DNA from: an uncultured Porphyromonadaceae bacterium
GTDB taxonomy: Bacteria; Bacteroidota; Bacteroidia; Bacteroidales; Muribaculaceae
NCBI GenBank assembly: GCA_947175645.1
Contig: CAMWNP010000002.1
Location: 96,835 to 160,834 of the forward strand
Reading direction: 5' to 3'
Length of the DNA: 64,000 nucleotides
Positions 6,222 through 63,904 of this stretch are shown here, in pieces. The notes below the pieces were generated by a model that worked only from the letters and a program-made list of their open reading frames with translations, was not told the DNA's origin and did not search any database. Both the position numbers and the translations under genes were made by a program. Positions within the stretch are counted from its first letter, which is position 1. Each line of letters begins with the position of its first letter.

Positions 6222-6228
6222 TAATACT

Positions 6229-29464: not shown

Positions 29465-29923
29465 TTACTTTTCGGCCTCTGTCGGGCATTTGTCGGCCAA
29501 TTTTACTGGGTACACATCCATGATGGGTGTTTCCTTAATGCAGAGGGCATTGAAATCGGCCATGGTGTCCTTCATGGTTGCATCAAAGCGGCTCATTGCA
29601 TCGTGCAGGTCGTTGGCTGCCAGCAAGAGCCTGCTGGCCGTCTTTTTCTCCGTGGCCGTGCGCTCATCAAGCGTTACAAACTCCACTTTGCACTCATACC
29701 AGCGGTCGGCATCATCGGCAAACACCACCTCGGAGTAATTCACACGCTTAATGCCTGCCACCTCAAACTCTCCGCTAATGTAGGGGGTAAGTTCCTCCAC
29801 AATGCGTGCCTCGGCCTCCGTAAAGGAGAGCGCATCCACAAGGTATGGCTCGGTAACTTTTTTGTTGGTGCCGTTTTCCTGCATTTTGTCGTAACGCACC
29901 TTACATTCAAACCACTTGCTCAT
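29465..29923 (-). CDS. DUF4494-like protein (152 aa)
   Basis: WFECKVRYDKMQENGTNKKVTEPYLVDALSFTEAEARI matches my recollection of the Bacteroidota DUF4494 family. Its ATG overlaps the upstream stop by 4 nt. Confidence 0.55.
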   Translation of the reverse strand: MSKWFECKVRYDKMQENGTNKKVTEPYLVDALSFTEAEARIVEELTPYISGEFEVAGIKRVNYSEVVFADDADRWYECKVEFVTLDERTATEKKTASRLLLAANDLHDAMSRFDATMKDTMADFNALCIKETPIMDVYPVKLADKCPTEAEK

Positions 29924-30501
29924 GCCTCGGCCTCCTCCTTAACCTTAATGCCGTAGCACTGGAAAATCAGAGCCTCAAACTGCTCTGCAACATACTCGGC
30001 CTTTTCCTTGCTGTTAAGCACAAGGGGGAAACCATAAAACGCATCCGTATACGAACACCGATAACTCGTACTCGCACAGCGGACACCCGAATACTCCGCA
30101 GTAGTCGCAAAAGCAGCAGAAAGGAGCTTAATGCCCTGTCTTTTACGCTCGTCCTCGCCCATGTCGGCAAGCTCCTGCTTGGTGTAAAACCAGTATATCG
30201 GGCACCATGTAGTGCCGTTCTCATCGTACTGCTGGCCGTTGTTGAGAGCCTTGCAGATAACCATGAGCTTGTAGGCCGCGCTGGCCATTTGCAGTGCCTC
30301 CTTGTCGCAGTCGGGAGTGCCACTAATCAAATGCTCACTCATGCCTAAATGGCGGCAGGCATCGCCGTAGGTTTTTATGGAGCGGAAATTAAACTTGAAA
30401 GCATCTGCTCCAAAAAGCTCTCTCAAAACCTCTTTGGTTTCTTCGCTGGCAGCATTGTAGTATTTTACTGCATCAGCCTTATTTGCTGTTAATTGTTCCA
30501 T
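29920..30501 (-). CDS. Remote DGR target protein (193 aa) carrying VR2
   Basis: Residues 125-160 (KLLSAAFATTAEYSGVRCASTSYRCSYTDAFYGFPL) are the TR sequence with substitutions at TR adenines. Confidence 0.85.
   Translation of the reverse strand: MEQLTANKADAVKYYNAASEETKEVLRELFGADAFKFNFRSIKTYGDACRHLGMSEHLISGTPDCDKEALQMASAAYKLMVICKALNNGQQYDENGTTWCPIYWFYTKQELADMGEDERKRQGIKLLSAAFATTAEYSGVRCASTSYRCSYTDAFYGFPLVLNSKEKAEYVAEQFEALIFQCYGIKVKEEAEA
30024..30129 (-). repeat. DGR variable repeat 2 (VR2)
   Basis: 106-nt alignment to TR 42775..42880. There are 11 differences at TR coding-strand adenines and 1 synonymous C-to-T near the 5' edge. Confidence 0.85.
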
Positions 30502-36723: not shown

Positions 36724-37066
36724 AGCCATTGACAATGCTATCAAAAAGCGTTTTTTTGAGGCTATCGGTATGCTCATGGCCAGCAAAGCCTTGAGAGGGC
36801 GGCAAACCTATTGCAGGCTGCACGATATAAACAAACGGCACTTTTATGAACAGGAAAAAAATATTGAAAAGGCCATACTCAAACCTTACTGGCTGGTGCC
36901 ACTGGTAGCCTACTACAATATAAATGCAGAGTGGCTGCTTACTGGCAAAGGTGGTATGTTTAAGCCAGCACCCAAACCACGAAAAGAAAGGGCTGGCAGG
37001 TATAAGAACCCACCAGCCCCAGCGGCCGCTCCTTTGCAGGGAGAGCTTAATCTTGAGGAGCCTTAA
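36704..37066 (+). CDS. HTH-like regulator (120 aa)
   Basis: WLLTGKGGMF motif typical of Bacteroidales phage repressor-like proteins. Confidence 0.45.
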   Translation: MRTEESRAIDNAIKKRFFEAIGMLMASKALRGRQTYCRLHDINKRHFYEQEKNIEKAILKPYWLVPLVAYYNINAEWLLTGKGGMFKPAPKPRKERAGRYKNPPAPAAAPLQGELNLEEP

Positions 37067-38336
37067 AGCCTACCAGCTCCAGCACTCGCCTGTTGGCCTC
37101 ATCCTGCTTGCTGTAGTCTTTATCCAAATAAATATCCGTTATGCGCATTTGCTCATCCACATGGTTTAATGCCTCATGTATGGTGGCTTTGTCAATGTTT
37201 GCCTTGTTGCGTGCCAGTGTAGCCCATGTGTGGCGAGCTGCGTAAAACTCCAAATCGGGTATCTCTATCCCCTCCATGGCTCCAATGAGCTTTAGCCCTC
37301 GGTTAATATAGCCATTAAAGCCATTGGAGGTAGTATAACGGAGGTGGAAATCAAAAACACGTTGCCCTGTTGGGTCACGGTATTTCTCCACCAGCGGCAT
37401 TACACATGGCTCTATCTTTATGCTAATTGTTGCGTGGTCGGCACGCCTGCTGGAGGTTTTTGTGCGCTGGTAAGTAATGCGGTCACCCTCAATGCAGGTG
37501 CAGTTATACAAATCAACGCTATTCATGCCAATTAGGCCAAAGGAGAGCAGGAACATATCGCGTGCCAGCTCTTGCCTTGAGGTTGGGTACTTTGCGCTGT
37601 TTTGGTAGCCAACGCGGCGCGGCACTCGCATAATGGCCTGTAGTTGCTCAATGCTTATGGAGCGTTTGCGAGTGAGAGGAGGGCGCGGCACTTGGAAACG
37701 CTTAAATGGGCTTAACGGTATGCGTATAATGCCTGCATCTTCATCATTATACATGGCTTTCGCCTTGTTGTGGAGTATGCGGATATTACCCAAATATAGG
37801 GAGGGCGCACGCTCTCCTTTTGTCCTGTTTGGGCGTGCTGGCTCATTCAGTAGGAATTTGCAGAAATCAGTGAGGAGTTTAACCGTAACCTCATGTATTG
37901 AGAGGGTGTCGCGTTTTAGGAAGCGTACCAGTGCATTTACAGCACTCTCATAGCTGTGCGCTGTGCCAACTCTGCCAGCCGCCTCTGTCTCTTTAATTAC
38001 CTGTCGGGAAAAGGCAATAAAATCAAGCTCAAATATTCCGTTATTCCTGTTGTAGTTCTGTATGTAGTCCACCACTTGCTCAATGCTCATTACATTGGCT
38101 CTCTCAATGGGCAGAGTGGCCACAATTTTTTGGTAGCCATCAATCGTGCGCTTGAGTGTGTCATTGACTTGGGCGTTCTTGATTTTAAGCCCTCGCGTTA
38201 AATCCTCCTTTGTTACAAATATGGAGGTGGGCAGGTGTTTACGCTTTCGGTTGTGCGTAACTCTAATTTTTACGTTGTATGTGCCATCTTCTTTGCGGTG
38301 GTGTGCATATACAACGGCCTTAAATGTTGTACTCAT
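37047..38336 (-). CDS. int: Tyrosine recombinase / phage integrase (429 aa)
   Basis: N-terminal arm-binding-like domain (YAHHRKEDGTYNVKIRVTHNRK). Catalytic region ARHTWATLA...HEALNH...Y. Adjacent to the tRNA. Confidence 0.85.
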   Translation of the reverse strand: MSTTFKAVVYAHHRKEDGTYNVKIRVTHNRKRKHLPTSIFVTKEDLTRGLKIKNAQVNDTLKRTIDGYQKIVATLPIERANVMSIEQVVDYIQNYNRNNGIFELDFIAFSRQVIKETEAAGRVGTAHSYESAVNALVRFLKRDTLSIHEVTVKLLTDFCKFLLNEPARPNRTKGERAPSLYLGNIRILHNKAKAMYNDEDAGIIRIPLSPFKRFQVPRPPLTRKRSISIEQLQAIMRVPRRVGYQNSAKYPTSRQELARDMFLLSFGLIGMNSVDLYNCTCIEGDRITYQRTKTSSRRADHATISIKIEPCVMPLVEKYRDPTGQRVFDFHLRYTTSNGFNGYINRGLKLIGAMEGIEIPDLEFYAARHTWATLARNKANIDKATIHEALNHVDEQMRITDIYLDKDYSKQDEANRRVLELVGFKAPQD

Positions 38337-38507: not shown

Positions 38508-38511
38508 TTTG

Positions 38512-38583
38512 TACTCCCGAAGGGAATCGAACCCTTATCATTGGAACCGGAATCCAGTATTCTATCCATTGAACTACAGGAGC
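38512..38583 (-). tRNA. tRNA-Arg (anticodon CCG), 72 nt, no encoded CCA
   Basis: Cloverleaf folded by hand: acceptor stem of 7 bp (2 G-U), D arm GTTC/GAAT, anticodon loop TTCCGGT, T arm AAGGG-TTCGATT-CCCTT. Confidence 0.8.
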
Positions 38584-41109: not shown

Positions 41110-42576
41110 TTATGCTAAAGGTATGTTGTGGAGTTTACAATCGGCATCCACCATAGCGCGGAGTGCCTTGCGCTCTGAAAGGAAATCAAGGTAGGGCTGC
41201 TTTTTGGCCTCATCCTCTATGCCCAGCATAGCGGCGTTGTAGTCGTTGAGCAGCTTGGCCTCCTCGGTGCTGCTGTACTTGGCAGCAATGAGGTTTTCCA
41301 GTATGGTATTGGCCGTAACTGGAGCAGCCACCAGCAGGCTGTCATACACGTTTACCTTAACCTTTTTGCCCTCCTCATCGGCACGCTCCTCAATGTGCTG
41401 GTTGTGGTTGTAGAGCGTTGTGCCTTTGATGCGGTCAATCACATCAAACGTGGGCTGTGCCTCGGCACTGGTGATGCCCACTCTCAAGTTTTCTTTACTC
41501 ATTGGGTTTAACTGGTTTATTGTTAATTGTAATATGCGTTCAAAATGCTCTTTAGAGCAGTGTTGTAGCCAGCCATAATGTGCGGCCAGCTCCATTTTAA
41601 CCTCATGCTCCTGCGTAATGCCATAGCGTTTTTGCACTTGGCGCAACTTACGCCAGTAGGTCATAAGTATGCTTCTGCGAGCCAGCACATTGTAATGGTT
41701 GCTCTTGTAGCCCACGAAATCAATAGAGCGAGCATCTACAGGGAAAATTTGCCAGTTGCCTTTTATGGTCAGCTCCAGCTCCCTTAACAGGTAAGCCTCA
41801 ATTTGCTCAAATACCCAGTGCAAAGCCTCCTTATTGCCACACAGGAAAACCATATCATCCATGTAGCGGAAATAATACAGGCGTGCATGAAAGAGCTTTT
41901 TAACCATTGGCGTTAGCCACTCCTTTACCCAGTGGTCAAATGGTGTTAGGTACCAGTTGGCAAAATGCTGGGAGGTAAGGCGGCCAATAGGTATGCCCTC
42001 ATTGCCCTCGGTGCTATCTACTATTGTATCCATGAGCCAAAGCAAATGCCTATCGCCATAGCTTTTGCGGAAAATCAGTTTGAGTTTATCATGCTTTATG
42101 GTGTCATAATAATGGTGTACGTCTAATTTTAAGCAGTATTTTGTACCCTTTTTATCCTTTTGCAATGTACGGTTAAGGTCGCGGAGGCAAGCATGAATAC
42201 CTCGCCCTTTTATGCAGGCGTAGGTATTGGCAATAAAGAGTTTACGCAAATCATCTTCAATAACATCAATGAGGCAGTGGTCAATTATGCGGTCGGGCAT
42301 GAGCTTGGCTATTTTTAGCACTCGCGTTTTAACCTTGCCGCCTGTTTTCTCCTTAATGATTTTCTTTGTATAAGGAGAGGGTATGTACTTGCGCTTATCA
42401 AGCAGCTCCCATACCTCGGTTATTGCCTCAATAAAGCCCTCGTTTAGTAGCCGCTGCACATCGTGCCTGTGCCGCTTACCCCGTATGGTGTTTAGGGTTG
42501 CGTGCAGCACGTTTTGAGGGTCGCATACTTTCCAGTAGCTGTTGTTATCGTAGCTGTGGTAAATTTTATGTGCCAT
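41110..42576 (-). CDS. DGR reverse transcriptase (488 aa) with a C-terminal extension of about 125 aa
   Basis: The DGR-specific motif IGRLTSQHFANWYL lies at residues 197-210; IGRLTSQ itself is 41968..41988. YMDD is at 41854..41865. The gene is adjacent to the TR. Confidence 0.9.
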   Translation of the reverse strand: MAHKIYHSYDNNSYWKVCDPQNVLHATLNTIRGKRHRHDVQRLLNEGFIEAITEVWELLDKRKYIPSPYTKKIIKEKTGGKVKTRVLKIAKLMPDRIIDHCLIDVIEDDLRKLFIANTYACIKGRGIHACLRDLNRTLQKDKKGTKYCLKLDVHHYYDTIKHDKLKLIFRKSYGDRHLLWLMDTIVDSTEGNEGIPIGRLTSQHFANWYLTPFDHWVKEWLTPMVKKLFHARLYYFRYMDDMVFLCGNKEALHWVFEQIEAYLLRELELTIKGNWQIFPVDARSIDFVGYKSNHYNVLARRSILMTYWRKLRQVQKRYGITQEHEVKMELAAHYGWLQHCSKEHFERILQLTINQLNPMSKENLRVGITSAEAQPTFDVIDRIKGTTLYNHNQHIEERADEEGKKVKVNVYDSLLVAAPVTANTILENLIAAKYSSTEEAKLLNDYNAAMLGIEDEAKKQPYLDFLSERKALRAMVDADCKLHNIPLA

Positions 42577-42774
42577 TGCTGTTATAAGAGCTTTCGCGCT
42601 CGCGGCTGGTGCCGCGCTCTACTCGCACTTTACAATCTCCATATTCTTTTGCCAGTAACCAGCCCCACTAATGCTGGGGCGTGGCTACTCTTGAGAGGCA
42701 TGGTCTTGGTGGGGTTGTTGAGTGGCCTATACTCCCGAAAGAGCGTAGAACCGAAAAAGTAATAAACGGTATAA

Positions 42775-42880
42775 GGGGGAAACCATAATTCGCATTCGTA
42801 TTCGAACACCGATTACTCGTATTCGCACAGCGGACACCCGAATTCTCCGCATTATTCGCATTAGCAGCAGAGAGGAGCTT
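42775..42880 (-). repeat. DGR template repeat (TR)
   Basis: Intergenic, between the target gene and the RT. Coding sense reads KLLSAANANNAENSGVRCANTSNRCSNTNANYGFPL with nine AAT codons. Both VRs differ from it at its adenines. Confidence 0.9.
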
Positions 42881-43035
42881 CCCGAAACCACCGCAACCGC
42901 GTTTTTGACCGAAAGCCGTAACGCTTGCTATGGTAATGGCCATGGCCACGCACCGCTCAAGGCGGTGCTTTAGGGGGATTGTTCATTTCTATATTGTTTT
43001 GAGTTACTTTTTCACTTTGTTATGCTGCCAGCTTT

Positions 43036-44466
43036 TCAAATGCCCTCGGAGGCCGAAAATTCAAGGCACAGGGGGAAACCACAACCCGCAAGCGTAATCG
43101 AACACCGATAACTCGTATCCGCACAGCGGACACCCGAATTCTCCGCACCATGCGCAGTAGCAGCAGAGAGGAGCTGTCTCCAGCCCTCCTCGTTGTTATC
43201 ATCTGTAGCAGGGTAAGAGTGCCACCAGTAATCGCCGTAGTTTTTATTGGCAGCTCCACCTACAACGCTGTTGGGGAAAGTCCAGCCATTAGCATACCCC
43301 ATTTCGGAGATATAGCCAGCGTTTACAGGCACGGCTCCCAGCTCCTCATAACCTGCCAGCGTGCGCACTCGGTCATTGGCAGGGTTGGCAAACTGGGCAG
43401 GGTCATTGCAAAGGAAAATAAGGCCATCGCCTCCGTCACTGGGCTTGCTGTACCATACGCGCACATCATCGTTATGCTCCCACATATACCTTTGCGGAGC
43501 CTCCCAGCCACGGTAACTGGCCACCTGTACCACTTTATCCACGCCTGTTTTCCAGTTCTTAATGGTATAGTCCACCACGCCAGTATTGTTGCCCAGCTTG
43601 GCAGTTACGCCACAAGGGATAAATGGATAGTAGCCGTTATATGTGTTCCACTCGGTACCATTTACCAGTGTGCCCATACCCAGCCCACCCTGCGCAAAAC
43701 CATCTTCTGTTTTGGCAGAGTTAAATGCAGTATCGCTGCTCAAATCGCCAAACTCAATGGCCATGAGCCAGCTCATTTCTTCGCGGAAATGCCAGCCTCC
43801 AAAGTGCCACATGGCACCCAGCGAGCGGCAGCGTGTGCGGAACGTGGCCATGTTGGCACTGGCACTACTCATGGGCATACCCTGCACAGAGCGGTAGGTG
43901 CCATCCCATGCCGTTTGGTTGTTGCCCCCTCGGTACTCGGCAGCATTACTGGTAAGCTCCAGCAAGCCGTTGGCATCACGCTTGAGTGAGCCGTCTGCAT
44001 TCCACTGGAGGAAAGAGGCACAGGTGGGCAGGTTGGTTGTACGGTTACAGGTAGCGAGCCATGGGGAGCGCGACCGCTCTTTCATGTGGATAAATCCAGG
44101 CAGTGGCACCTCGCTAATGGCTACCAGCATATAATCGCCATCAAACTCAATGCGGCGGTAATAGTCGGGCTTGTAGAGCTGCACAATGCCGTCAAGGGCA
44201 TTAAGGCGAGCCGCACCGCCTCCCTCCTTGAGGGTGCTGTCGTTGGCTCCCAGCCAGTAATTAACACTGCCATCGGCATTGGCTATGTAACGCCGTATGC
44301 GCTTTTGTATGGGCAGCGAGCGGTGCAGGTCAAGGTTGCCCACGCGCTCCAGCTTGCCATCAGCTACGCAATGCCCTCCGTTCTTGAGGTTAATGCGTAT
44401 GCCATACCACGAATCTTTGTAGGGGAATTGTGGCACGGTGTTTCCTATTCCTATAAGTGTACCCAT
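43036..44466 (-). CDS. DGR target protein 1: tail-fibre / receptor-binding-like protein (476 aa) with C-terminal VR1
   Basis: Last gene of the tail module. Residues 431-466 match the TR sequence with adenine-site substitutions. Confidence 0.85.
   Translation of the reverse strand: MGTLIGIGNTVPQFPYKDSWYGIRINLKNGGHCVADGKLERVGNLDLHRSLPIQKRIRRYIANADGSVNYWLGANDSTLKEGGGAARLNALDGIVQLYKPDYYRRIEFDGDYMLVAISEVPLPGFIHMKERSRSPWLATCNRTTNLPTCASFLQWNADGSLKRDANGLLELTSNAAEYRGGNNQTAWDGTYRSVQGMPMSSASANMATFRTRCRSLGAMWHFGGWHFREEMSWLMAIEFGDLSSDTAFNSAKTEDGFAQGGLGMGTLVNGTEWNTYNGYYPFIPCGVTAKLGNNTGVVDYTIKNWKTGVDKVVQVASYRGWEAPQRYMWEHNDDVRVWYSKPSDGGDGLIFLCNDPAQFANPANDRVRTLAGYEELGAVPVNAGYISEMGYANGWTFPNSVVGGAANKNYGDYWWHSYPATDDNNEEGWRQLLSAATAHGAENSGVRCADTSYRCSITLAGCGFPLCLEFSASEGI
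43071..43176 (-). repeat. DGR variable repeat 1 (VR1)
   Basis: 13 differences from the TR over 106 nt. All are at positions where the TR has A on the coding strand. Confidence 0.9.
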
Positions 44467-51257: not shown

Positions 51258-54200
51258 TTATGCAATGCCTTTAGCCCTCAATGGGTCGCTGGCTATTAAA
51301 GACCTTAAATTCTCAAGAGTGGTGCCAATGGCACGCAGATGGGTGTTGGCGGCTCCAGTGTTGGTTTGTATGCCTGCAAGATATGTGAGAGCTTGGCGAA
51401 TGTTGTTGTCAATGCTCAACATGGAGCTGTTAAACTCCTGCTGGAGCATGAGCATTTCCATTTGCCGTATGCGCATTGTGGTAAGCTCGCCAGCCACCAT
51501 GCTTGCGGTATCCTCCGTGCAGCCTTTTATCTGCCCCTCCAGCGTTTCCTTGGTGCCGTCTATATCATCGCTGAAATCCTTGAAATACTCCTCAAAACTT
51601 TGCAGCCCCTCGGTAAACGCATTGCCAGCGTTCTGCAACATACGTTTCCACTTGGCAAAGTCAAAGCCAGCCACGCTATTGTTATGGGCACCCATATAGG
51701 AGGCCAGTGCCTCTGTAAACTGATTTACAATCGGCTCAATGAGCTTTAGCTTGAGGGAGTTTTTAACGGCATTGGCAATGGTTGTGTTCCATACCTCTTC
51801 AAAGCTCTGTGCGCTGTCCTCCATATTGCCAAATGCAGTTGCCCATACATCGGCCAGCTCATTTGCCAAATCTCGGAAATTGGTTTGCACAAGGCTCTCC
51901 GTTATTTGCTTTTCTATGTCGGCAATATCACGCGCTGCCTGCTCGGCACTGGCCAAATACTCCTGTACCTTGTTATCATCGCGGTCTTTGCTCTTTTTAC
52001 TCTGCTCAAGGCGTGCAAGCTCCTTGTACTCCTGCTGCTGTTTTTTAAGGTTCTCAATGGCCTTGCGCTGCTCCTTGTAGTAGTCCTCGCCCACAGCATT
52101 ATCCACGCGCCATGTTATTTCACTATATACGCGCTGTAATGCCTTGAGCTGCTTTTCATGCTCGGCCATTTCTCGCTTTATGCGGCGGCTGGTGCTATCA
52201 AACAGGGATATGGCAGAGGTAATGAGGCCAATGCCGCCCTGTATAATATCCATGGGGTTACTGCTGGCAATACCCTTGGCAAGCTGGGCGGCTCCACCTA
52301 TCATGTTGCTTATATCGCCCAGCATTTCCTGTGTAACCTCATCGCCAGCAAGCCCCAGCTCCTTGAGGCCATTAACCACGCTGTCAAAGCCCTCTTTCAC
52401 AAACTCAATGCTCCCTGCAATGCTCTCAAACATTTGGGAGAACTTTTTGCTCTTTTCGGGGGTATTATCGGCAGTAGCGTTATAGGCTTTTATGGAGGTT
52501 ACAAGCAACTTGAAGGGGTTTTTGCTCCCCTCAACTTGCCGCTGCAACTCCTCAAGCTGCTGGGTAAGGCGTGCCTTAATATCAACATCGCCAATGGCAT
52601 CAACTTGTTTTTTGAGGTCTGCCAGTATGGTGTCAAAGGCACTGCTGCTTAAATACTGGGCATTGGCAAAGAGCTGTTTCCAGTTGTCTGTTGCCTGTAT
52701 GCGTGTGGCATCTATCTCTGCCACGGCCTTACGGCGTGCCTTTTCTGCAACCTCTGCCTGCTGGGTGTAACCATGCTGTCGGAGCCATGTTATTTCCTGC
52801 TCAAACTTTTGCTCTGTTTCAAGCCTTAACTGGGCATTGGTTTTGTATGTCTCAAGGAGCTGCTTTTGCAACTGCTCGGTAGTTTGGGTAATTTGGCGGT
52901 CAATCTCCTGTATTGCCTTGGCTCTATCCTCGCCTATGAGATTGCCCTTGCCCTGCTGCAATTCCATTTTGCGCTTGGCAAGCGTAGAGAGGTAATCGCC
53001 CAGCGTTTTGCTGTCCTCCTTGGCTTTGGTTAGAGCCTCGGAGAATTTCTCCATCTCGGTCTTCACACCCTGCACTTGGCGTAGCTGCTCTTGGTATGCA
53101 ATGAGGGCGTTGCCGTCTGCCTCTGTAATGGTGCCATTATCCATTTGAGTTTGGAGGGCGGCAATTTTACCCTTTAACCATGCCTCATAAGTGTTGCCCT
53201 GCTCAACAAGAGAGGCGTATTGTCTGTTAGCAACCTCGGTGCCGTATGCTTCTATCCATTTGTAATATTGGGTGTATTGCTTTTTACGTTCCTCAATTTC
53301 GGTGCTAACAAGGTCACTACGCTCAATCTCATAGCTGGCATTTTCATTGGCACGCAGCTCCTCATATTGCGCAACGACATCGGCAGGCATAGCCTTTTTG
53401 GCAGCCTTGTATTTCTCCTCAAGCTCTTTTTGCTCTTTGTCAATGCGAGCCAGTTCTTTGCGGTGCTGTGCCTCCAGCTCGGCCTGCCTTTTCTCAAAGC
53501 CATCTTTAATTAGAGCCAGTCGGCTTTGCTCAACCTCCAGCCCTAAATCAATAACTTTTTGGTCAATGGCTTTTTGTGCATCGGCCACCTTTTTAGCAGC
53601 ACTCTGTGCGGCATTGCCAGTCTTGGGGAGGCGAGCATTGAGAGTGTTAATTTGGTTGTTATACTCTTTCCATGCAGCACTGCCCAGCGTAACACCAGCA
53701 CGCAAATCCTTGAGGCGTTTAACCTCATCATTTATGCCGTTCTCGGTATTGAGGTTGTTTTGCTGTTTGGTTATCTCGCCCTTAACTGCATTGAGCATGG
53801 AGAGGGCATTTTCAAAGCCGTATGTTTGGCACTCAATGGTAACGGTGGAGCCGCTTAACTGGCCGACCAGTTTATGCAACTCCTCAAGGCTCAATGTTGT
53901 AATGTCAATTTGCTCCTTAACCTCATTGTCAATGGGCTGGCCGCTAAACATACCTGCCACCTGCTGCTCAATAATGGCCACGTTGGCCATACACTGCTGG
54001 CTGTCGGCAATGGTGTTATCCACAAAGGTTTTTACAACGTCTCGGAACTCGCTTAACTCCTCGCCAGTTGCGCCTGTTGTTTCCTGTATGCGAGTAAGTA
54101 TGTCGTTAATGAGCCTATCGTGTGCCTCGGTGTATGCGGTACCTGTGAGCTTGGCCAGCTCCTCTGCTCCCTGCACGGCACGCACCTGTACGCTTGCCCA

Positions 54201-56456
54201 TAGTGCATCAGTAGCGTTGCGTATATTGTCAGAGGCGTGTTCTACCGACTGGTAAGCCTGTGTGTAAATATCGCCAGCATACACGGTACTCATTTCAATG
54301 CGGTGGAAAGAGGCATCTTTCGCCTCATTGATAAGTTCTTCCAGCCTCTCCTCTTGTTTAGCTGTGAGTTTACCCTGTCCCTCCTCAATGTATTTGGCCT
54401 TGAGCTTGGCGGCAGTGCTACGCTCTACAGCCTCAATAAGCTCATCATGCTTTCTAATTTGAGCCTCCAGTGCTGCATTTTCCTCCAGTATGGCAATTTT
54501 ATGCTCCTCGCAAAGCTGGTTTACCTTTGCCAGTGCATCCTTGTACTCCTTGGAGCTGCTGGAGCTGTTTTTGAGGATAGAGAACCACAGGTTCATTTTG
54601 CTGTAGCTCTCCGATACGGCCTCATTAAACTCTCCCTGTATCTTTGTGGCTTCCTCCTCCTCTTTGCCAAACATCATAAGCACGCTAATGAGCGTTGTGG
54701 CAGCGGTAATAATAGCCGTAATGGGGTTGGCTATCATGGTTGCCCACAAAGCCTTTAATTTGGCGGTTAAGAACGTGGTGGCGGTACTTAACAGGCCGCT
54801 TGTGGTAGCCTGCATGGTATCGCTGGCAGCTTTCGCTTTGCCTGCAATACTTGCCTGCTGGGTTGCAAGTGTGGCAATCCTTTGTGTGGCGGCCTCCTTG
54901 GCCGTGCGTGTGGCCTTGAGGTCGCTGATAATAATGCTGTGCTGCTTGAGCTGGTTATGTTGCTGCTCCTTGAGCATGGCAGCGGCCTCGGCGTTACCCT
55001 CGGCATTGGCCAGCGCAATCTGCACACGGGTATGCTCTATTTTGTTTTGGCTGATACGGTACTCCTGTAGGAGTGTAGCCTGTTTCTGCTTGAGTGCGGC
55101 AGCCTCGGCTCGGAGAGTTGCCATCTGTGCGGCATTCTCCTGTTGTTGTGCCCTAATGGTGTTCTCAATGGCCACAACATACTGGGTGCTGTTGCGTGTG
55201 AGGTTCTGCTTGGCCAGTGCCTGCTGCTGGTCGGCTGTAAGTATGCTTTCGGCAGCGGCCAAATACTCAATACTGGTGTTATTGAGGTTTAGACGGCTCA
55301 AATATAGAGCCTGTTCCTGTGTGAGCAAACCCTGTATGGCCTGCACCTTGAGGCCACGCAATATGTTTTCCTGCTGCTCAAGAGTAAGCGTTTTTTGCAG
55401 CTCTGCGCTGTATGCCTGCTCTGCAACGGTTAATGCTCCCTGCTGTGCGACATAAGCCTTGCCATTAACAACAAGGCCACCCATGAGGAGTGTGCGAGCT
55501 TTGAGAACTAAATTATCCAGTGTGGCCATGCGCGTGCTGTTGCCATGAGCTATAGCTACAGCAGCCGTGGCCACTTTGTAGCTGCCATATACAGCAATGA
55601 GTGCGCCCATAACCTTGAGGCATTTATCGTAGTTTTCCACCAGTGTAGCCACGGCAGAGATACCACCCGACAAAATGCCCTCCATGTTGGTGCCCATTTC
55701 ATTGAGCATCATATCCCATGCGTCTTCAAGGTTGGAGATTTGGCCAGTAAGAGATTTTGATTGCTCCTCCATGAGGCCAAAGAACATACCACCCTCATTT
55801 GTGAGGTTTTCAATAACCTTTTGAACTTCGGGGAAACCAATTTGGCCAGCCGTAACCATGTTGTTAATCTCGGTTTCAGACTTACCCAGTACCTTTGTAA
55901 GCTCCTGCACAAGCGGTATGCCGCGCCCCATAAACTGCCTTACGTCTTGGGTAAAGAGCCGCCCCTGTACCATGGTGGTACCATAGAGCATTGTGAGGTC
56001 GTTAAGGGGTATGCTCAAGCCGCTGGCAATGTTGCCCAGCCGCACAAGAGTATCGTTTACCGTTTCGGCACTCTCGCCATAGGCAAGTAGTTGCTTTGCG
56101 CCATTGGCTATACCCTGCAAGTCAAAGGGAGTGGTGGCAGCAGTTGTTACCAGTTGCCCCATGAGGTTTTGCGCTTTCTCGGCACTCCCCAGCATGGTAC
56201 CAAAGGCAATTTCCAACTGCTGGAACTCGCCACGCACTGAAATCATATCGGACACCCAGCTCTTGAGCATGGCAGTAACGGCCAGCCCAGCTACAGCCTT
56301 GCCAATATTGCTAAAGCTCTGCACAATATCGGTGGAACTCTCCTCAACGGTGTCCTTAAACTGCATAATGCGCTGCTCATCACGCGCCAGCATTTCGTTT
56401 ATATTGCTGTCGCGGATAAGTACGTCAAAGGCTAATGCTCCATTGTTATTTTCCAC
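51258..56456 (-). CDS. Tail tape measure protein (1,732 aa, GTG start)
   Basis: TP901-type core (GIANGAKQLLAYGES...LVRLGNIASGLSIPLNDL...GRGIPLVQEL), a very long coiled coil, and position after the chaperone gene. Confidence 0.9.
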   Translation of the reverse strand: MENNNGALAFDVLIRDSNINEMLARDEQRIMQFKDTVEESSTDIVQSFSNIGKAVAGLAVTAMLKSWVSDMISVRGEFQQLEIAFGTMLGSAEKAQNLMGQLVTTAATTPFDLQGIANGAKQLLAYGESAETVNDTLVRLGNIASGLSIPLNDLTMLYGTTMVQGRLFTQDVRQFMGRGIPLVQELTKVLGKSETEINNMVTAGQIGFPEVQKVIENLTNEGGMFFGLMEEQSKSLTGQISNLEDAWDMMLNEMGTNMEGILSGGISAVATLVENYDKCLKVMGALIAVYGSYKVATAAVAIAHGNSTRMATLDNLVLKARTLLMGGLVVNGKAYVAQQGALTVAEQAYSAELQKTLTLEQQENILRGLKVQAIQGLLTQEQALYLSRLNLNNTSIEYLAAAESILTADQQQALAKQNLTRNSTQYVVAIENTIRAQQQENAAQMATLRAEAAALKQKQATLLQEYRISQNKIEHTRVQIALANAEGNAEAAAMLKEQQHNQLKQHSIIISDLKATRTAKEAATQRIATLATQQASIAGKAKAASDTMQATTSGLLSTATTFLTAKLKALWATMIANPITAIITAATTLISVLMMFGKEEEEATKIQGEFNEAVSESYSKMNLWFSILKNSSSSSKEYKDALAKVNQLCEEHKIAILEENAALEAQIRKHDELIEAVERSTAAKLKAKYIEEGQGKLTAKQEERLEELINEAKDASFHRIEMSTVYAGDIYTQAYQSVEHASDNIRNATDALWASVQVRAVQGAEELAKLTGTAYTEAHDRLINDILTRIQETTGATGEELSEFRDVVKTFVDNTIADSQQCMANVAIIEQQVAGMFSGQPIDNEVKEQIDITTLSLEELHKLVGQLSGSTVTIECQTYGFENALSMLNAVKGEITKQQNNLNTENGINDEVKRLKDLRAGVTLGSAAWKEYNNQINTLNARLPKTGNAAQSAAKKVADAQKAIDQKVIDLGLEVEQSRLALIKDGFEKRQAELEAQHRKELARIDKEQKELEEKYKAAKKAMPADVVAQYEELRANENASYEIERSDLVSTEIEERKKQYTQYYKWIEAYGTEVANRQYASLVEQGNTYEAWLKGKIAALQTQMDNGTITEADGNALIAYQEQLRQVQGVKTEMEKFSEALTKAKEDSKTLGDYLSTLAKRKMELQQGKGNLIGEDRAKAIQEIDRQITQTTEQLQKQLLETYKTNAQLRLETEQKFEQEITWLRQHGYTQQAEVAEKARRKAVAEIDATRIQATDNWKQLFANAQYLSSSAFDTILADLKKQVDAIGDVDIKARLTQQLEELQRQVEGSKNPFKLLVTSIKAYNATADNTPEKSKKFSQMFESIAGSIEFVKEGFDSVVNGLKELGLAGDEVTQEMLGDISNMIGGAAQLAKGIASSNPMDIIQGGIGLITSAISLFDSTSRRIKREMAEHEKQLKALQRVYSEITWRVDNAVGEDYYKEQRKAIENLKKQQQEYKELARLEQSKKSKDRDDNKVQEYLASAEQAARDIADIEKQITESLVQTNFRDLANELADVWATAFGNMEDSAQSFEEVWNTTIANAVKNSLKLKLIEPIVNQFTEALASYMGAHNNSVAGFDFAKWKRMLQNAGNAFTEGLQSFEEYFKDFSDDIDGTKETLEGQIKGCTEDTASMVAGELTTMRIRQMEMLMLQQEFNSSMLSIDNNIRQALTYLAGIQTNTGAANTHLRAIGTTLENLRSLIASDPLRAKGIA

Positions 56457-57333: not shown

Positions 57334-57864
57334 TTAGGTGCTGGATTTGGCAGGGAATGTGGCCGTCTTTTTGCGTGCTCTCATCGTTTTCACGCCAGCC
57401 TTGGTGGGCTTGAGCGGAGTAACGGTAAAGTCCACAAGGTTAATGCCCTGAGCTGACATATCAGCGTTAAGCACGGCCTCAATGTCGGCACGCGGTATGG
57501 TGTAAACCAAACCGATTTCGGGCACAACTCGGATACTGGCCTCAATATCCTCATCGGTATCGCTCCAGCTCCATTCCATGTCATCGCCAGTGCCAGTTGT
57601 CTCGCCACCCAAATAGGCTTTGAGGAACGTGGGGTCGGGGTCCATTATGGAGAAAGTAAGGATAGGCACCTTTTTACGCTTGCGGCGTGCTTCGGGTGCG
57701 CTCTGCCCCTCCTCATAATGCTCTGTTACCTCGGCCTTTTCCTGCGTCATTTTGCAGGTGTTTTGGTAGGTCTTGCCGATTTTGCTGTAGGCAGTAGCCT
57801 CGCCGCCATCAGCAGCGATTTTGCCAACCTGTATTTCCGAAAGACCCAGTGTAATTACTCCCAT
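57334..57864 (-). CDS. Major tail (tube) protein (176 aa)
   Basis: Position between the neck genes and the chaperone, with a strong terminator after it. Confidence 0.6.
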   Translation of the reverse strand: MGVITLGLSEIQVGKIAADGGEATAYSKIGKTYQNTCKMTQEKAEVTEHYEEGQSAPEARRKRKKVPILTFSIMDPDPTFLKAYLGGETTGTGDDMEWSWSDTDEDIEASIRVVPEIGLVYTIPRADIEAVLNADMSAQGINLVDFTVTPLKPTKAGVKTMRARKKTATFPAKSST

Positions 57865-57876
57865 GTTGGTAATAGT

Positions 57877-58344
57877 TTATGAGTTATGAAAATTAAAGCG
57901 TATTTTGAACCAAATGCGGTGGCAATTAAGGGCAGCCTCCTCTATTACATCCTGTGCAACACACTCAAACGACCAGCCATTTTCACAGTAGTATTTTTTG
58001 AGTGAGGCGTATGCAAGCCCTGCAAGCTGCTTGATACGGTCGCTCGCGGCCTCCGTGTCTGCTGGCTCGCTTGCGTGTGTTGTGCAGGTGTTAATGTCGG
58101 GTACATAGATATTCACATTGCTGGTGCCAAACTGCACGCTGCCACTCTCAATGGAGAGGCTGCTGATAACGCAATCCTCTACCTTGGGGGGCTGGTTGCG
58201 CTGGGGCTTTTTGCTCTTGGTTATAGAGCCTGTAAGCTGCTTGGCCAGCTCGGATTGAGTTAGCACCACATAGAGTATATCATCTTGCAGCGTGTTAAAC
58301 TGCATATCCTCTTGCAATGGAATTTCTTCTACCTTTTTTGCCAT
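57877..58344 (-). CDS. Copy of 240..707 (neck or tail-terminator-like protein)
   Basis: Exact copy, offset +57,637. Confidence 0.45.
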   Translation of the reverse strand: MAKKVEEIPLQEDMQFNTLQDDILYVVLTQSELAKQLTGSITKSKKPQRNQPPKVEDCVISSLSIESGSVQFGTSNVNIYVPDINTCTTHASEPADTEAASDRIKQLAGLAYASLKKYYCENGWSFECVAQDVIEEAALNCHRIWFKIRFNFHNS

Positions 58345-58346
58345 GC

Positions 58347-58832
58347 TTAATTGGCGTTTTTATAAATTTGAGTTTTGAGCATTTGCATGAGCTTGGGAAC
58401 TCGCTGGAGGGCGTAACGCTCTGCGCTATCCAGCACATCCTTGTTAAGGCTCTCTACATAGTGGGCATAGTGCATACCAGCTACCACAATGAGGGCGTAG
58501 CCCTTTGTAAAGCGTTTTGCCAGCTCCTCTGCAAGAGCTTGACCTTGGAGAATACCCTTGCCGTTTGCTGCATCAATTACCTTGGAGGCCACGCGCTCCT
58601 CAAAGTTTTTGCAGATTATATCGCCATTCTTTACCAGCACATAGCCAATAGAGTTGCGCAAATTTCCTGTAATGTCGTTATAGGTTCCTTGCTCCCTCGC
58701 AATCTTTACGCACTCCTCGCCAATAAACTGCATAACCGTTTCAATGGCTCGGTGTACGCGCAGTGCGTACTCGGCAAAGGTGTTGTGTACCTCGCCTTTG
58801 CCAAAGGCAGCACTAAACCCATATTTTGCCAT
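58347..58832 (-). CDS. Copy of 710..1195 (HK97 gp10-like)
   Basis: Exact copy, offset +57,637. Confidence 0.55.
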   Translation of the reverse strand: MAKYGFSAAFGKGEVHNTFAEYALRVHRAIETVMQFIGEECVKIAREQGTYNDITGNLRNSIGYVLVKNGDIICKNFEERVASKVIDAANGKGILQGQALAEELAKRFTKGYALIVVAGMHYAHYVESLNKDVLDSAERYALQRVPKLMQMLKTQIYKNAN

Positions 58833-59136
58833 AATGCTTATAGCGTTTGTATCGCATTACTTTGCCCTCCACCTGTACCGTGCCATCCGCGCCCAATACT
58901 CGGATTTGGGCGTTTACTGGCACGGCAGGGGCGTTGGCAGGAAAGAAAATGTTGGAACTCTTGTTGATGGCACGCGCTGCAACCGTTGAAACCTCCTCGC
59001 CTCCATCGCTCGGCTCCTCGCGGCACATGGTTAGTGTTCTCCACTCGGAGGTACCACCCACCAAATCGCCTACGTCATTGCGCTCGGCCTCGGTGGTTAC
59101 AAGCATTTGGAGTGTATCGGTATATCGGCTGGCCAT
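58813..59136 (-). CDS. Copy of 1176..1499 (head closure-like)
   Basis: Exact copy, offset +57,637. Confidence 0.45.
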   Translation of the reverse strand: MASRYTDTLQMLVTTEAERNDVGDLVGGTSEWRTLTMCREEPSDGGEEVSTVAARAINKSSNIFFPANAPAVPVNAQIRVLGADGTVQVEGKVMRYKRYKHYGKIWV

Positions 59137-59139
59137 GGC

Positions 59140-59487
59140 TTAAAATCTGTTTGAGGCGTGCGTTAGCGTTGTTACCGTTTCGGGCAGGAACTCCTCTACA
59201 GGCACCCCAGCCTCGCGGCACAGGAACGCAATGCGCTCCTTGAGCTTGTCATTGTAGCTCTGCGACCACTCGGCCTCTTTCTCACTGGAGAGTGAGAGGT
59301 ATTTAACCAGTACCAGCACTGCTGCCAGCGCAATAACGCGGTCGTTGTCGGGGGTGTAGTCCTCCTTTGCGGCCAGTGTAGCACCAGCACGCTTGCAAGC
59401 GGAGAGCAGAGCCTTTTCAAGCTCCAGCTCATTATCGCCGCTGCAATAGGGTAATACCTCGCTGGCTATTGCCTGTAGATTGTTCAT
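59140..59487 (-). CDS. Copy of 1503..1850 (connector or adaptor)
   Basis: Exact copy, offset +57,637. Confidence 0.45.
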   Translation of the reverse strand: MNNLQAIASEVLPYCSGDNELELEKALLSACKRAGATLAAKEDYTPDNDRVIALAAVLVLVKYLSLSSEKEAEWSQSYNDKLKERIAFLCREAGVPVEEFLPETVTTLTHASNRF

Positions 59488-59500
59488 GCTCTATTCGGGT

Positions 59501-60673
59501 TTAGGCGTTTTCCTCTGCGTTGCTCTTGGCATTAGCTGCCTCAAGGTTACGCACGCGGTAATTGACAATGCCCTCAATCTCGGTAATGGCAGGGAGCGCA
59601 CGCCAGCTTGCCTGTGTGTACTCGCCTGCCTGCTGGCCTGTGCTTTCGCCAACCTGCCACTTGGCCACGCGAATGCCATGGTCGGCATCCATGTAGGTTA
59701 CATCGGGTTCGGGGATAATGCTGTTATCCTCAAATGCAGGCTGCACCTCGCCGATTATGCCAGCAGGCTTAAAGCACAGCACATCATCGTTGTAGGGGTT
59801 GATGAGCGTTTCCTTACGTTTGCCATCCTCGGCCACAGAGTTGCGCTTGTTTACGATGGTAAATGCAGGCAGCTCAAAGGCAGCAAGCATATTGGTAAGC
59901 TCCACAGGGGTTACAGGCTGCCCCGACTTGTCGCTGCCCTTGATAGCACGGCGCACGGAGGGCAGGTTGATAAGCCAGTAGTACACGGAGGGGGAGATAA
60001 GAGTTTCTCCAAACGAAATGCCTTTGTTAGCAAAGGTGTAACGAATGTCGGCAAGCTCCTCAAAGGGGTTAATCTTGCTCTCGTTGCCTTTCTCCCACGC
60101 CGTAGTTGCCACAAGTTTGTTGGCATCGGGCATATCGTAGTCCACCTTGTAGCGGCGGCCATCGGGGTTATTGAGCTGGGGCTTGAACTCGGCCACACCG
60201 CCATTGGAGAGAGCTTGCAGGATAATGTGGTCGGCAGTATCCTTACAGCCCAAATATGCTTCACGCACATCCTTAATAAGCAGCTTTTTGACCTGTGCCA
60301 TTTTCTGCTGGTCGGTGTAGCGTGGGCTTTCCAGTACCTCCAGCAACTTGCGGAGGTTGTCGGCAGACATGGGGAACTTATGACCCATGCGCGGGATTTC
60401 GCCCTCAAAGGTGGTAAAACCATCAGTGGGGCGTGTAGGAGTGGCCGCATTGTTGCCGATAACGCTTGCCATAAAGCGCACTCTGTACTTTGACTGGAGT
60501 GTCTTACAGGTAAGCCCCATTTGAGGCAGGTTAAAGTCAAACCAGCGGTCAACGTAAAGCTGCTCAAAGAGAGCCTTCTGCTGCTGGCTGGCCGTGTCAA
60601 ACATGATTTTGAGGGTGGCCAGCAGGCTCACAGGAATAGTGGGTAAATTTACTTTGTTAAAAATTGACTCCAT
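59501..60673 (-). CDS. Copy of 1864..3036 (major capsid protein)
   Basis: Exact copy, offset +57,637. Confidence 0.7.
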   Translation of the reverse strand: MESIFNKVNLPTIPVSLLATLKIMFDTASQQQKALFEQLYVDRWFDFNLPQMGLTCKTLQSKYRVRFMASVIGNNAATPTRPTDGFTTFEGEIPRMGHKFPMSADNLRKLLEVLESPRYTDQQKMAQVKKLLIKDVREAYLGCKDTADHIILQALSNGGVAEFKPQLNNPDGRRYKVDYDMPDANKLVATTAWEKGNESKINPFEELADIRYTFANKGISFGETLISPSVYYWLINLPSVRRAIKGSDKSGQPVTPVELTNMLAAFELPAFTIVNKRNSVAEDGKRKETLINPYNDDVLCFKPAGIIGEVQPAFEDNSIIPEPDVTYMDADHGIRVAKWQVGESTGQQAGEYTQASWRALPAITEIEGIVNYRVRNLEAANAKSNAEENA

Positions 60674-60692
60674 GTGTTACCTCCTTTCGGTT

Positions 60693-61328
60693 TTAGAGCG
60701 ACTGGGTATAGGCTACCTTGGTACCCTTGAGCAGGTTGCCCTCAAGGTACTTGGCAGGCACAGGGGGCACGCGGCGAGCGTAAATCTCGCCACAACCGCT
60801 GTCGCGTGTAACATTGATTTGGGTATCGGCCAGCTCCTCCTTGACCTCGGCACTCTCGTAGGTGTCAATGGTAATGCTGTTGGGTTCTGCCACCAGCTTT
60901 ACGTTGGTGCCATCAGCCACAACCTCAAAGAGTGCGGAGCCTACTGCAAGACCAGTAATGGCCTTGGAAAGCGTAATCTCCATGCCAGCCTCGGTGTTGG
61001 CCACCGCTGTGATGCTGGGGGAGTTTGCGAGAGTGGCAGAGAGGTCGCTTTGCACCGTATCGCCCACCATAAACAGGGGCTTGCTGAACTCATCTGCCTC
61101 CAGCGTTACCTTTTTGGCATCGGTACCAATGGCCACTACTCGCGCACTCTTGATGAGCTTGCCGTAACGTGTGGCCTCGTTTACACAGGCCAGCGTGCCA
61201 AAGGGAACCAAAGCACCAACAGGCAGGTTGGTTTGAGCAGGGTCAAGCGTAAAGCCTCCTGTAACCATTACAGGGGGCTGGGTGCTGCACGGACGGGTGC
61301 CACCATAGCTTCTTTTCTTGGGTTTCAT
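60693..61328 (-). CDS. Copy of 3056..3691 (capsid accessory-like)
   Basis: Exact copy, offset +57,637. Confidence 0.35.
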   Translation of the reverse strand: MKPKKRSYGGTRPCSTQPPVMVTGGFTLDPAQTNLPVGALVPFGTLACVNEATRYGKLIKSARVVAIGTDAKKVTLEADEFSKPLFMVGDTVQSDLSATLANSPSITAVANTEAGMEITLSKAITGLAVGSALFEVVADGTNVKLVAEPNSITIDTYESAEVKEELADTQINVTRDSGCGEIYARRVPPVPAKYLEGNLLKGTKVAYTQSL

Positions 61329-61342
61329 TGCTCTGTGATTAA

Positions 61343-61939
61343 TTAGTTTGTTTTTACCTCACACTCGGCAAGCAGCTCCTTGGCCATGTCTGCCTCTGCC
61401 TGTTTCTGCGTTTCCGCAGCCACATCTTTGCTGGCAGGCTTTAAGCCTCGGTCTACAAGGCTCTGCTTGTACCTGCCCAAATAATCTGCCACATCGGCAT
61501 CTTCGGGAATGGTTACAAACTCCATGTCGGCCTCTGTAAGACCCAGCTTTTTGGTCTCGGTGGCAATGAGGTTGTCGCGGTTGCTCTTTGCGAGCTGTGC
61601 CTGCAACTGGGAAATAGTTGTGGCCTGCTCATCAAATTTGGTTTGGAACTTGGCGGTTACTGCCTCCACAATAGCCTCCACGTTGGCCTCAAGCGGTTTC
61701 TCGGTGGGCGGTGTTGCAGGGGGAGTGTTAGGCTTTTTGCCCTGCGCCCATCGGGTAGCCTCGGCCTGCATGGCTTTAAGGACAGGCAGGTACTCATTTG
61801 CGCGTTGCTCAATAGCCTCATCGGTCGCATCTTCTCCCAGCCCATTGCTTGCTATGGTGGCAATTTGCTGGATAGAATCCTTGGAAAGCCCCATGTCCGT
61901 GCATTTGGCCTCCAATACCTGTAAAAGTTTTTTCTTCAT
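61343..61939 (-). CDS. Copy of 3706..4302 (scaffolding-like)
   Basis: Exact copy, offset +57,637. Confidence 0.5.
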   Translation of the reverse strand: MKKKLLQVLEAKCTDMGLSKDSIQQIATIASNGLGEDATDEAIEQRANEYLPVLKAMQAEATRWAQGKKPNTPPATPPTEKPLEANVEAIVEAVTAKFQTKFDEQATTISQLQAQLAKSNRDNLIATETKKLGLTEADMEFVTIPEDADVADYLGRYKQSLVDRGLKPASKDVAAETQKQAEADMAKELLAECEVKTN

Positions 61940-62170
61940 TGCTCTACTTGCTTTAAGTGTTCGCTGCAAAGGTAATCAGTAATTTAATATGCGTACAAAT
62001 ACTGAACGCCTAATTTTTGAAAGTAATTCAACCTCAATTCACTGCGAATATTGTTAAAGACTGTTAAATATTGCGGATTTTTGGCTTGAAAGTTTGGTAT
62101 CTTAATTCTTTCCACTAACTTCGCAGCGTACAAAATATGAACGCTTTTAGAAAATAAAAAAATCAAATAT

Positions 62171-62689
62171 ATGTTACAGCACGAATTTGAGAGCCGCGTA
62201 GGCATTGAGGTAAGCGCAAAAGAGTATGCCGCCATTGAGCAGGTTTACATGAGCAGCGATGTAGAAAAGGATGAGTTTTGCAAGCTGTGGGCAAAAATGA
62301 ACCGTGTGCGCATTGCCAATGCTAAAGCCCAGCAAAAAGCCGCCGCCCAGTTTAAGGCACTCCGCATTGAGGAACAGGTAATTGTAAAAATGCTGGAGTT
62401 AGCAGAGCAGCGAGCTAACAACACAGGCTGCACGCTCCCTGTTAGCGACACCAACATTGATGCAAACAAGGTACGCGCACGCTACGAAGAAGCAGACGGC
62501 TTTACGGTGTATTTGGTATTGCGTGATACAGGAGCCGCAATTACTCACACCTATACAGAGGCCATGAATGAGGCAAAGGCTTTTAGCTCAAGCAATCCTA
62601 CGGTTTATGAGTTTTTTGGCAACCGCACACTTAACCATGGCTACTACAAAGTTGCTGGCTACACCTCTAACCCGAAACAAATATTTTAA
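62171..62689 (+). CDS. Copy of 4534..5052 (hypothetical)
   Basis: Exact copy, offset +57,637. Confidence 0.6.
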   Translation: MLQHEFESRVGIEVSAKEYAAIEQVYMSSDVEKDEFCKLWAKMNRVRIANAKAQQKAAAQFKALRIEEQVIVKMLELAEQRANNTGCTLPVSDTNIDANKVRARYEEADGFTVYLVLRDTGAAITHTYTEAMNEAKAFSSSNPTVYEFFGNRTLNHGYYKVAGYTSNPKQIF

Positions 62690-62708
62690 CACATAAATAC
62701 TTACAGCT

Positions 62709-62939: not shown

Positions 62940-62946
62940 CTAACAC

Positions 62947-62967
62947 GGGGCTGGGCTGGCCAGCCCC
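62947..62967 (+). terminator. Copy of the stem-loop at 5310..5330
   Basis: Exact copy, offset +57,637. Confidence 0.45.
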
Positions 62968-62982
62968 ATAACAAACAAAAAT

Positions 62983-63216: not shown

Positions 63217-63218
63217 CC

Positions 63219-63422: not shown

Positions 63423-63426
63423 CAAT

Positions 63427-63858: not shown

Positions 63859-63865
63859 TAATACT

Positions 63866-63889: not shown

Positions 63890-63904
63890 ACAACACAAAT
63901 AACC

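Follow-up and report, generated by a model that had tools for sequence, protein, structure and literature searches.

Does the cluster of a tail-protein gene, a repeat and a reverse transcriptase (RT) gene at positions 41,110 to 44,466 represent a diversity-generating retroelement (DGR), and how complete is it? The 64,000-nt stretch of uncultured Porphyromonadaceae DNA that holds it (contig CAMWNP010000002.1) is called the window here. An original prediction, made from the letters of the DNA, had read the cluster as a DGR. This reading was borne out by adenine-only divergence between the repeats, a DGR motif in the RT, 16 related loci, and target proteins that vary in the variable repeat (VR) only. 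The element is almost certainly a DGR. The picture drawn at that time was incomplete, as it did not state the absent avd gene, the fusion of the RT, the spacer RNA that resembles the Rfam family RT-17, or the second target. The element is an Avd-less DGR with two targets, and DGRs of this type are known from earlier work on gut Bacteroidales phages. The best explanation, to which we assign a probability of about 0.93, is an Avd-less DGR with the order target, template repeat (TR), RT on a 57,637-bp temperate siphovirus-like Bacteroidales phage, which would work by the mechanism proposed below.

The repeats, the two targets and the reverse transcriptase

The main parts of the cassette are the following.
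43036..44466, minus strand: target gene 1, for a tail protein of 476 aa whose C-terminal domain is variable (phrog_5302 'tail protein', E = 1.3e-69)
43070..43175, minus strand: VR1, a variable repeat of 106 nt in target 1 codons 431-466, with 12 mismatches to the TR, all at adenines
42774..42879, minus strand: TR, non-coding, with 24 adenines and 9 AAT codons in the VR frame
41503..42576, minus strand: the actual DGR reverse transcriptase, which takes up aa 1-358 of the open reading frame (ORF) 41110..42576 (488 aa)

TR and VR1 formed a direct repeat of 106 nt, with the two copies 296 nt apart and both on the minus strand. The pairwise alignment that had been proposed as a check was run base by base, and all 12 internal mismatches (12/12) fell on TR adenines, with zero at other bases. 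Given 24 adenines in 106 nt, the hypergeometric probability of this outcome is 1.2e-9. VR1 matched TR at 82/82 non-adenine positions. The 13 substitution positions listed by the original prediction were all correct, but it had placed all 13 at adenines subject to mutagenesis, and this holds for the 12 internal ones. The 13th is the 5′ boundary base (42880/43176, A versus C), where the difference is probably fixed in the flank rather than produced by mutagenesis, because the 85%-identical relative L001 has A versus C there as well. The repeat itself is real, but its bounds, formerly placed at 42775..42880 and 43071..43176, are now 42774..42879 and 43070..43175. The gap between TR and RT measured 197 nt instead of the 198 nt given before.

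In VR1, eight of the nine AAT codons and one TAT codon of the TR were altered, and no stop codon was created. VR1 had been described as the last 36 or so codons of its gene. Its length of 36 codons was right, but ten invariant codons lie between VR1 and the end of target 1.

The 190-nt gap between VR1 and TR is gene-free. A perfect 7-bp hairpin (GCACCGC-CTTGA-GCGGTGC; 42957..42975, minus strand), identical in L001, lies between the target 1 stop codon and TR, and could either serve the target gene as a terminator or form the 5′ end of the RNA of the DGR. A mechanical ORF of 93 aa with a GTG start (42668..42949, minus strand) runs across TR in the VR reading frame, and gene callers may annotate it. 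It is probably no gene, because its length varies among relatives (68 aa in L001).

Scanning the genome with TR, with the non-adenine positions alone scored, revealed one more variable repeat that belongs to this TR. It lies in the recombination and replication module.
29920..30501, minus strand: target gene 2, 193 aa (phrog_11581)
30023..30128, minus strand: VR2, second variable repeat of the same TR, target 2 codons 125-160

VR2 lies 13 kb from VR1 and matched TR at 81/82 non-adenine positions. It showed 12 mismatches to TR, 11 of them at TR adenines and one a synonymous C>T change. The differences between TR and the VRs therefore fall (almost) only on TR adenines (12/12 in VR1, 11/12 in VR2), both VRs stand near the 3′ end of their target genes, and a non-coding TR stands beside the RT. 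In an hhalign comparison, target 2 matched the target 1 family with a probability of 97.5%, limited to the VR region. No signal peptide was evident in target 2 by eye, with no predictor run.

The module around target 2 runs in the order SbcC-like protein, RecT, metallo-beta-lactamase (MBL)-fold hydrolase, target 2, DUF4494 protein and DnaD-like protein. The positional counterpart of the MBL-fold hydrolase, which adjoins target 2, is annotated in Porphyromonas phage005b as an Apyc1-like anti-Pycsar nuclease. Homologs of target 2 were found at the equivalent genomic position in Bacteroides phage Versailles, where the gene is adenine-diversified too, and in LoVEphage. Relatives L028 and L029 and phage Versailles all have the target 2 gene, with VR2s that are diversified differently. 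The Versailles copy (L037, 10181..10762) is labelled 'tail protein', apparently owing to the VR similarity.

The RT proper matched Pfam RVT_1 (E = 9e-14) and phrog_1423 'reverse transcriptase' (E = 1e-93, aa 12-356). Among all PDB sequences the best match was 8ub7_A, a 328-aa RT (E = 1.4e-17). The next matches were group-II-intron-like RTs at E = 5e-7 or weaker, ten orders of magnitude behind. The motifs IGRLTSQ (aa 197-203) and YMDD (41854..41865) were present, as was IGRLTSQHFANWYL. In the alignment to 8ub7, residues I181-Q187 (IGSLTSQ) and R74 stood opposite I197-Q203 and R85 of the window RT. Handa et al. describe [I/V/L]GxxxSQ as the DGR signature and report that R74 and I181 of the Bordetella RT, bRT, promote adenine mutagenesis (PMC7826257). 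The residue numbers in the 8ub7 chain (I181, Q187, R74) are exactly those given for bRT, and from this numbering and the chain length we infer that the chain is bRT. A literature search on the PDB code 8UB7 gave no match. The earlier statement that the motif pair is typical of DGR RTs, and not of retron or group II intron RTs, holds with IGRLTSQ, YMDD and 8ub7 as the best PDB match.

These data also bear on the alternative that the element is not a DGR, in which the RT would be of retron, group II intron or defence type and the repeats would be an ordinary duplication changed by normal mutation. The NCBIfam models for group II intron, retron and defence RTs (DRT) did match the RT, but all scores were far below the cutoffs (e.g. 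97.9 versus 300 bits). The motif is IGxxxSQ and not QGxxxSP, and the Rfam scan found neither group II intron RNA nor retron RNA. Adenine-only divergence was present in 16 loci, with a chance probability of about 1e-9 in the window alone. The non-DGR reading is effectively refuted. The RT is of the DGR type ([I/V/L]GxxxSQ instead of QGxxxSP, together with YxDD) by motif and alignment.

The AlphaFold (AF2) model of target 1, built on 52 homologs, had a predicted local distance difference test (pLDDT) value of 82.7. The top Foldseek matches in the PDB were TaqVP (5vf4; E = 4.5e-3, probability 0.98, template modelling scores 0.36/0.44), Mtd (1yu*) and AvpA (5ioo). All three are variable proteins of DGRs and have C-type-lectin folds. 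By sequence search, target 1 had no match in PDB or Pfam. The C-type-lectin-like variable domain that had been suggested before thus agrees with the identity of the top fold matches, but not with strong scores, and this fold is moderately supported by the model. A role of target 1 as receptor-binding protein is plausible. Because the Foldseek scores are weak, both readings are reasonable and not proven.

Relatives and variation in the variable repeats

Protein searches returned hundreds of RT and target homologs, and the related loci were drawn from viral and genome collections. By megablast, the cassette matched none of the INPHARED phages; the relatives were found at the protein level alone. 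All 16 loci that held the whole cassette also held a TR/VR pair, in which every mismatch, or almost every one, fell on a TR adenine (for example 11/11, 10/10, 14/14 and 17/19, and 12/13 in phage Versailles).

The TR of L001 is nearly identical to the window TR. It showed two non-adenine changes, and both are mirrored in VR1 of L001. One of them recurs in VR2 of L028, which is on another contig of the same metagenome. Because non-adenine changes of the TR are mirrored in the VRs of relatives, TR sequence has been copied into VRs since these phages diverged. This comparison is compatible with unidirectional transfer from TR to VR, as in mutagenic retrohoming.

Across 52 aligned target proteins, entropy among the 476 columns was highest in ten, namely 437, 439, 440, 443, 450, 452, 453, 457, 459 and 461. 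These columns are the positions of the TR AAT codons; the codon for position 452 is AGT in the window TR and AAT in the TR of L001. Two clusters of targets (at least 90% identity) had closest representatives that were 87% and 84% identical to the window target, respectively. Within them, each member carried a different VR, and many pairs showed 0 differences over 440 residues outside the VR and 7-10 differences inside it. This population-level result suggests ongoing diversification in the target family, as distinct from this genome copy.

Spacer RNA, Avd and protein X

The flanks and the non-coding part of the cassette contain the following elements.
43065..43080, minus strand: candidate initiation of mutagenic homing (IMH) element, consisting of the invariant VR 3′ end GGTTTCCCCCT and the VR-specific flank GTGCC
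42566..42686, minus strand: structured RNA in the spacer between TR and RT, which resembles Rfam RT-17 (RF03020) and reaches into the RT start codon
42888..42898, minus strand: 5′ arm of a long-range helix, GGTTGCGGTGG, which adjoins TR and pairs with 42702..42712
42702..42712, minus strand: 3′ arm of this helix, CCACCAAGACC, which adjoins stem P1 of the RT-17-like RNA on its 5′ side

A GTGCC-type flank was found 3′ of both VR1 and VR2 in the window and 3′ of both VRs of phage Versailles. The TR flank differs and reads TATACC or TTTACC (TATACC in the window). Because this distinction holds in relatives, including both Versailles VRs, the VR and TR flanks form a candidate IMH/IMH* pair, with the function read by analogy with IMH/IMH* of BPP-1.

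RT-17 was detected at the position equivalent to the window spacer in several relatives, with scores above the gathering score in L015 (51.0 bits), L006 (47.9 bits), L011 (47.4 bits) and L010 (41.4 bits). RNAalifold recovered both RT-17 stems, with compensatory pairs in the inner hairpin, and the fold of the spacer gave a z of −2.5. The window RNA has a 21-nt insertion hairpin in P1, and because of it the spacer RNA is best called a divergent relative of RT-17. The orphan Rfam motif RT-17 is thereby linked to DGRs, at the place which RT-10 (the Sp region) holds in BPP-1.

About 10-14 nt immediately 5′ of TR can pair with the stretch immediately 5′ of RT-17 stem P1. The helix was assessed with a matrix of duplex energies for cognate and non-cognate arms, together with shuffles; a pair count on a MAFFT alignment was dropped, as the arms were out of register. 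In six diverged relatives the cognate arm was the best of 11 partners and better than the shuffles, with compensatory changes. Examples of cognate arms are GGTGTT/AACACC, GGAGAT/ATCTCC and GTGGCGGC/GCTGCCAC.

The gene order target, TR, RT had been called canonical. The order is present, but there is no avd, unlike BPP-1 with its order target, avd, TR, RT. No Avd-like Pfam match was found in the neighbouring genes at E up to 10, nor among the 122 genome ORFs of 85-175 aa, where distant homologs could escape Pfam. Avd occurs in about 74% of DGRs and is not universal. Wu et al. describe a lineage 3 with the architecture target-TR-RT, which 'notably lacks avd' (PMC5758913), and the DGR of crAssphage LMMB has been placed in this lineage (PMC7290462). 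The window RT showed about 40% identity to the LMMB RT over aa 94-352. By the missing avd, the gene order and this identity, the window element is consistent with lineage 3 and architecture A1 of Wu et al.

The ORF 41110..42576 had been taken as an RT over its whole length. This holds for aa 1-358, but the last 130 aa are a separate fused protein.
41110..41502, minus strand: protein X, 130 aa (aa 359-488 of the RT ORF), with its own ATG (M359); phrog_11557; in-frame fusion to the RT

Protein X is a tail-module protein that is unrelated to the RT, and not an RT domain. In relatives it occurs in three forms, as an in-frame RT fusion, as a separate ORF in another frame, which shares 38-44 nt with the end of the RT, and as an adjacent gene. 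The AF2 model of X (pLDDT 90.9) showed a four-stranded beta-sheet with three helices, and a Foldseek search against the PDB gave no match. X resembles small proteins of crAss-like phages, structural homologs that lie next to RTs.

The position of X raises the possibility that this acidic protein replaces Avd as cofactor of the RT, with an RT-17-type spacer RNA that presents TR inside the long-range helix, in a ribonucleoprotein other than that of BPP-1. X stands directly downstream of the RT in 13/13 related loci and is fused in frame in at least 7, the fusion is also present in cr55_1 and L039-L041, and X stands beside the RT in some crAss-like phages as well. No Avd is detectable. Wu et al. 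remarked that the elements of lineage 3 have to function in its absence and that C-terminal extensions for which there is no explanation are found in about 20% of DGR RTs (PMC5758913), which would fit such a cofactor. However, X also follows a homolog of the target directly on its 3′ side in Porphyromonas phage005b, cr111_1 and contig L038, which lack any RT or TR. Its family comprises 350 representative clusters, almost all stand-alone, and RT fusions account for 2 of the 150 best representatives. X is acidic (isoelectric point 5.2), and since its fold consists of a sheet and helices, with no helical bundle and no PDB match, it is not Avd-like. In the crAss-like phage cr50_1 (L024, NC_055868.1, 94177..98270), the order is RT, a 114-aa X-like protein, target and a second X homolog of 128 aa. 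Two X paralogs thus flank the target with the RT upstream, and the closest X homolog comes after the target, not after the RT.

A cofactor role of X is quite unlikely on this balance, and X as an Avd analogue or DGR accessory was largely rejected on its DGR-less occurrences, the blank Foldseek search and its stand-alone family. If it were true, the diversifier would be physically coupled to the tail module that it diversifies. The simplest reading is that TR and RT lie between two tail-module genes and that the RT-X fusion is incidental. The previous claim that the target is the last gene of the tail module does not strictly hold, as the conserved small protein X comes after the target in the DGR-less relatives.

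For the Avd-less target-TR-RT DGR we propose the following mechanism. Minus-strand transcription would run through TR and the 197-nt spacer. The spacer RNA, RT-17-like and with TR closed off by the long-range helix, would recruit the RT and probably prime it, like Sp in BPP-1. The RT would copy TR into complementary DNA (cDNA) and misincorporate opposite template adenines (IGRLTSQ and YMDD, with R85 and I197 corresponding to bRT R74 and I181). The cDNA would then take the place of VR1, within the gene of the tail protein, and of VR2, within the 193-aa early-region gene, and the direction of homing would be set by the shared GGTTTCCCCCT end and the VR-specific GTGCC flank. The AAT codons would limit diversity to about 10-11 residues and would never yield stop codons.

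Several results speak against this explanation or parts of it. The window is a single consensus sequence, so VR heterogeneity within the population cannot show. One VR2 mismatch sits at a C. The window spacer reached 28.5 bits with the RT-17 covariance model (E = 0.0016-0.0036) and thus stays below the RF03020 gathering score of 40.4; the spacer of the close relative L001 also scored below it. The window helix is weak, with −14.2 kcal/mol and a z of +0.4, no better than shuffled controls. The Foldseek scores of target 1 are weak, as given above, and the fit to lineage 3 is an argument from consistency.

Some of these points would also suit a fossil cassette, a once-active DGR that no longer diversifies here and whose VR differences are frozen history. 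The single consensus sequence fits this view, as do the weakened helix (5 bp in the window versus 7 in L001), the RT-17 score below four more distant relatives (L006, L010, L011 and L015) and the absent RT stop codon, so that the RT is made as an X fusion. On the other side, the RT ORF is uninterrupted with all catalytic motifs present, and the TR keeps its 9 AAT codons. The VRs match the TR at 82/82 and 81/82 non-adenine positions, which argues for recent homing. The same RT-X fusion is found in many relatives, whose target clusters vary in the VR only. A fossil is therefore very unlikely. The cassette is apparently intact, and the window copy is probably active, as judged from its sequence.

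Phage genome, host and comparison with known systems

The window covers one entire genome (57,637 bp) and reads on past its start, and bases 1..6363 are the same as bases 57638..64000. The genome is circular or terminally redundant, and the phage is temperate and siphovirus-like. The tail module is of the siphovirus type and runs from the tape measure protein (51258..56456) through a 178-aa protein, a 416-aa protein, a 1526-aa tail protein and a 113-aa protein to the target. It is followed by TR and RT-X, a 137-aa protein, a 199-aa membrane protein, an amidase and a DUF6549 protein.

A complete tRNA-Arg(CCG) gene (38511..38583, minus strand) and a tyrosine integrase of the Bacteroidetes type (37047..38336, minus strand), the latter with Arm-DNA-bind_5 and Phage_int_SAM_5 domains, lie side by side shortly after the lysis genes. 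This region is probably the phage attachment site attP. A tRNA is found at the equivalent end in relative L014 too.

The host is a member of the Bacteroidales, since the named relatives come from Muribaculum intestinale, Prevotella bivia, Dysgonomonas and Barnesiella. Proteins of Muribaculum intestinale stand within the 84%-identity target cluster. A host in the Bacillota or in Phascolarctobacterium, as suggested by the labels of metagenome-assembled genomes with related phage contigs, was set aside as probable mis-binning.

A DGR is unsurprising here, as these elements are common in gut Bacteroidota phages; they were reported in 43% of inducible Bacteroidota prophage species (PMC12629997). 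The value of this locus is that it offers a clean and complete Avd-less target-TR-RT example with its RNA parts mapped (the RT-17-like spacer, the IMH-like flank and the helix arms that would clamp TR). Close relatives have cultivable hosts, namely Muribaculum intestinale and, for the B. caecimuris I48 prophage Versailles, a bacterium of OMM12 mice, so that the mechanism and the second, non-structural target are testable.

The prototype BPP-1 (mtd-avd-TR-brt) shares with the window a TR/VR pair with adenine-specific mutagenesis, in which the VR departs from TR at about half of the adenines. In both, the VR lies at the 3′ end of a tail gene of the receptor-binding type with a putative C-type-lectin-like variable domain in the window protein, and the RT has the [I/V/L]GxxxSQ motif with the residues aligned to R74 and I181 kept. 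Unlike BPP-1, the window is without avd, has a spacer RNA of another family and has two targets 13 kb apart. Its RT is fused to an unrelated 130-aa protein and shows low identity to the BPP-1 RT (alignment E = 1.4e-17).

The lineage 3 / A1 elements of Wu et al. (2018), such as that of crAssphage LMMB (PMC5758913, PMC7290462), resemble the window in architecture, with target, TR and RT on one strand and no avd. They also share Bacteroidales phage hosts and a target of the tail (collar) fibre type with a C-type-lectin-type VR, which is putative in the window. The lineage 3 / A1 example is a crAss-like podovirus, whereas the window is a temperate siphovirus-like phage with a second, remote VR.

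Bacteroides phage Versailles (ON453897, 58.1 kb), a prophage of B. caecimuris I48, is the closest cultured relative. It matches the window phage in genome size and in the synteny of tail fibre, small ORF, target, TR, RT, X and lysis genes. The second target is shared as well, again placed after SbcC, RecT and the MBL hydrolase, and Versailles carries its own TR, VR1 and VR2 with adenine-site differences. It differs in that protein identity is about 43% and X is a separate ORF, which is read in another frame and shares 38 nt with the RT 3′ end. In the Versailles GenBank stretches examined (L002, ON453897.1 52388..55660; L037), the annotation gives a 'reverse transcriptase' and two 'tail proteins', with no DGR, TR or VR features.

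Remote second VRs near counter-defence genes were described by Dahlman et al. (2025) in four prophage species of Bacteroidota (PMC12629997). Those prophages are different phage species from that of the window, but the arrangement is alike: one TR serves a tail target beside the RT as well as a distant VR, which lies in a non-structural region close to putative counter-defence genes.

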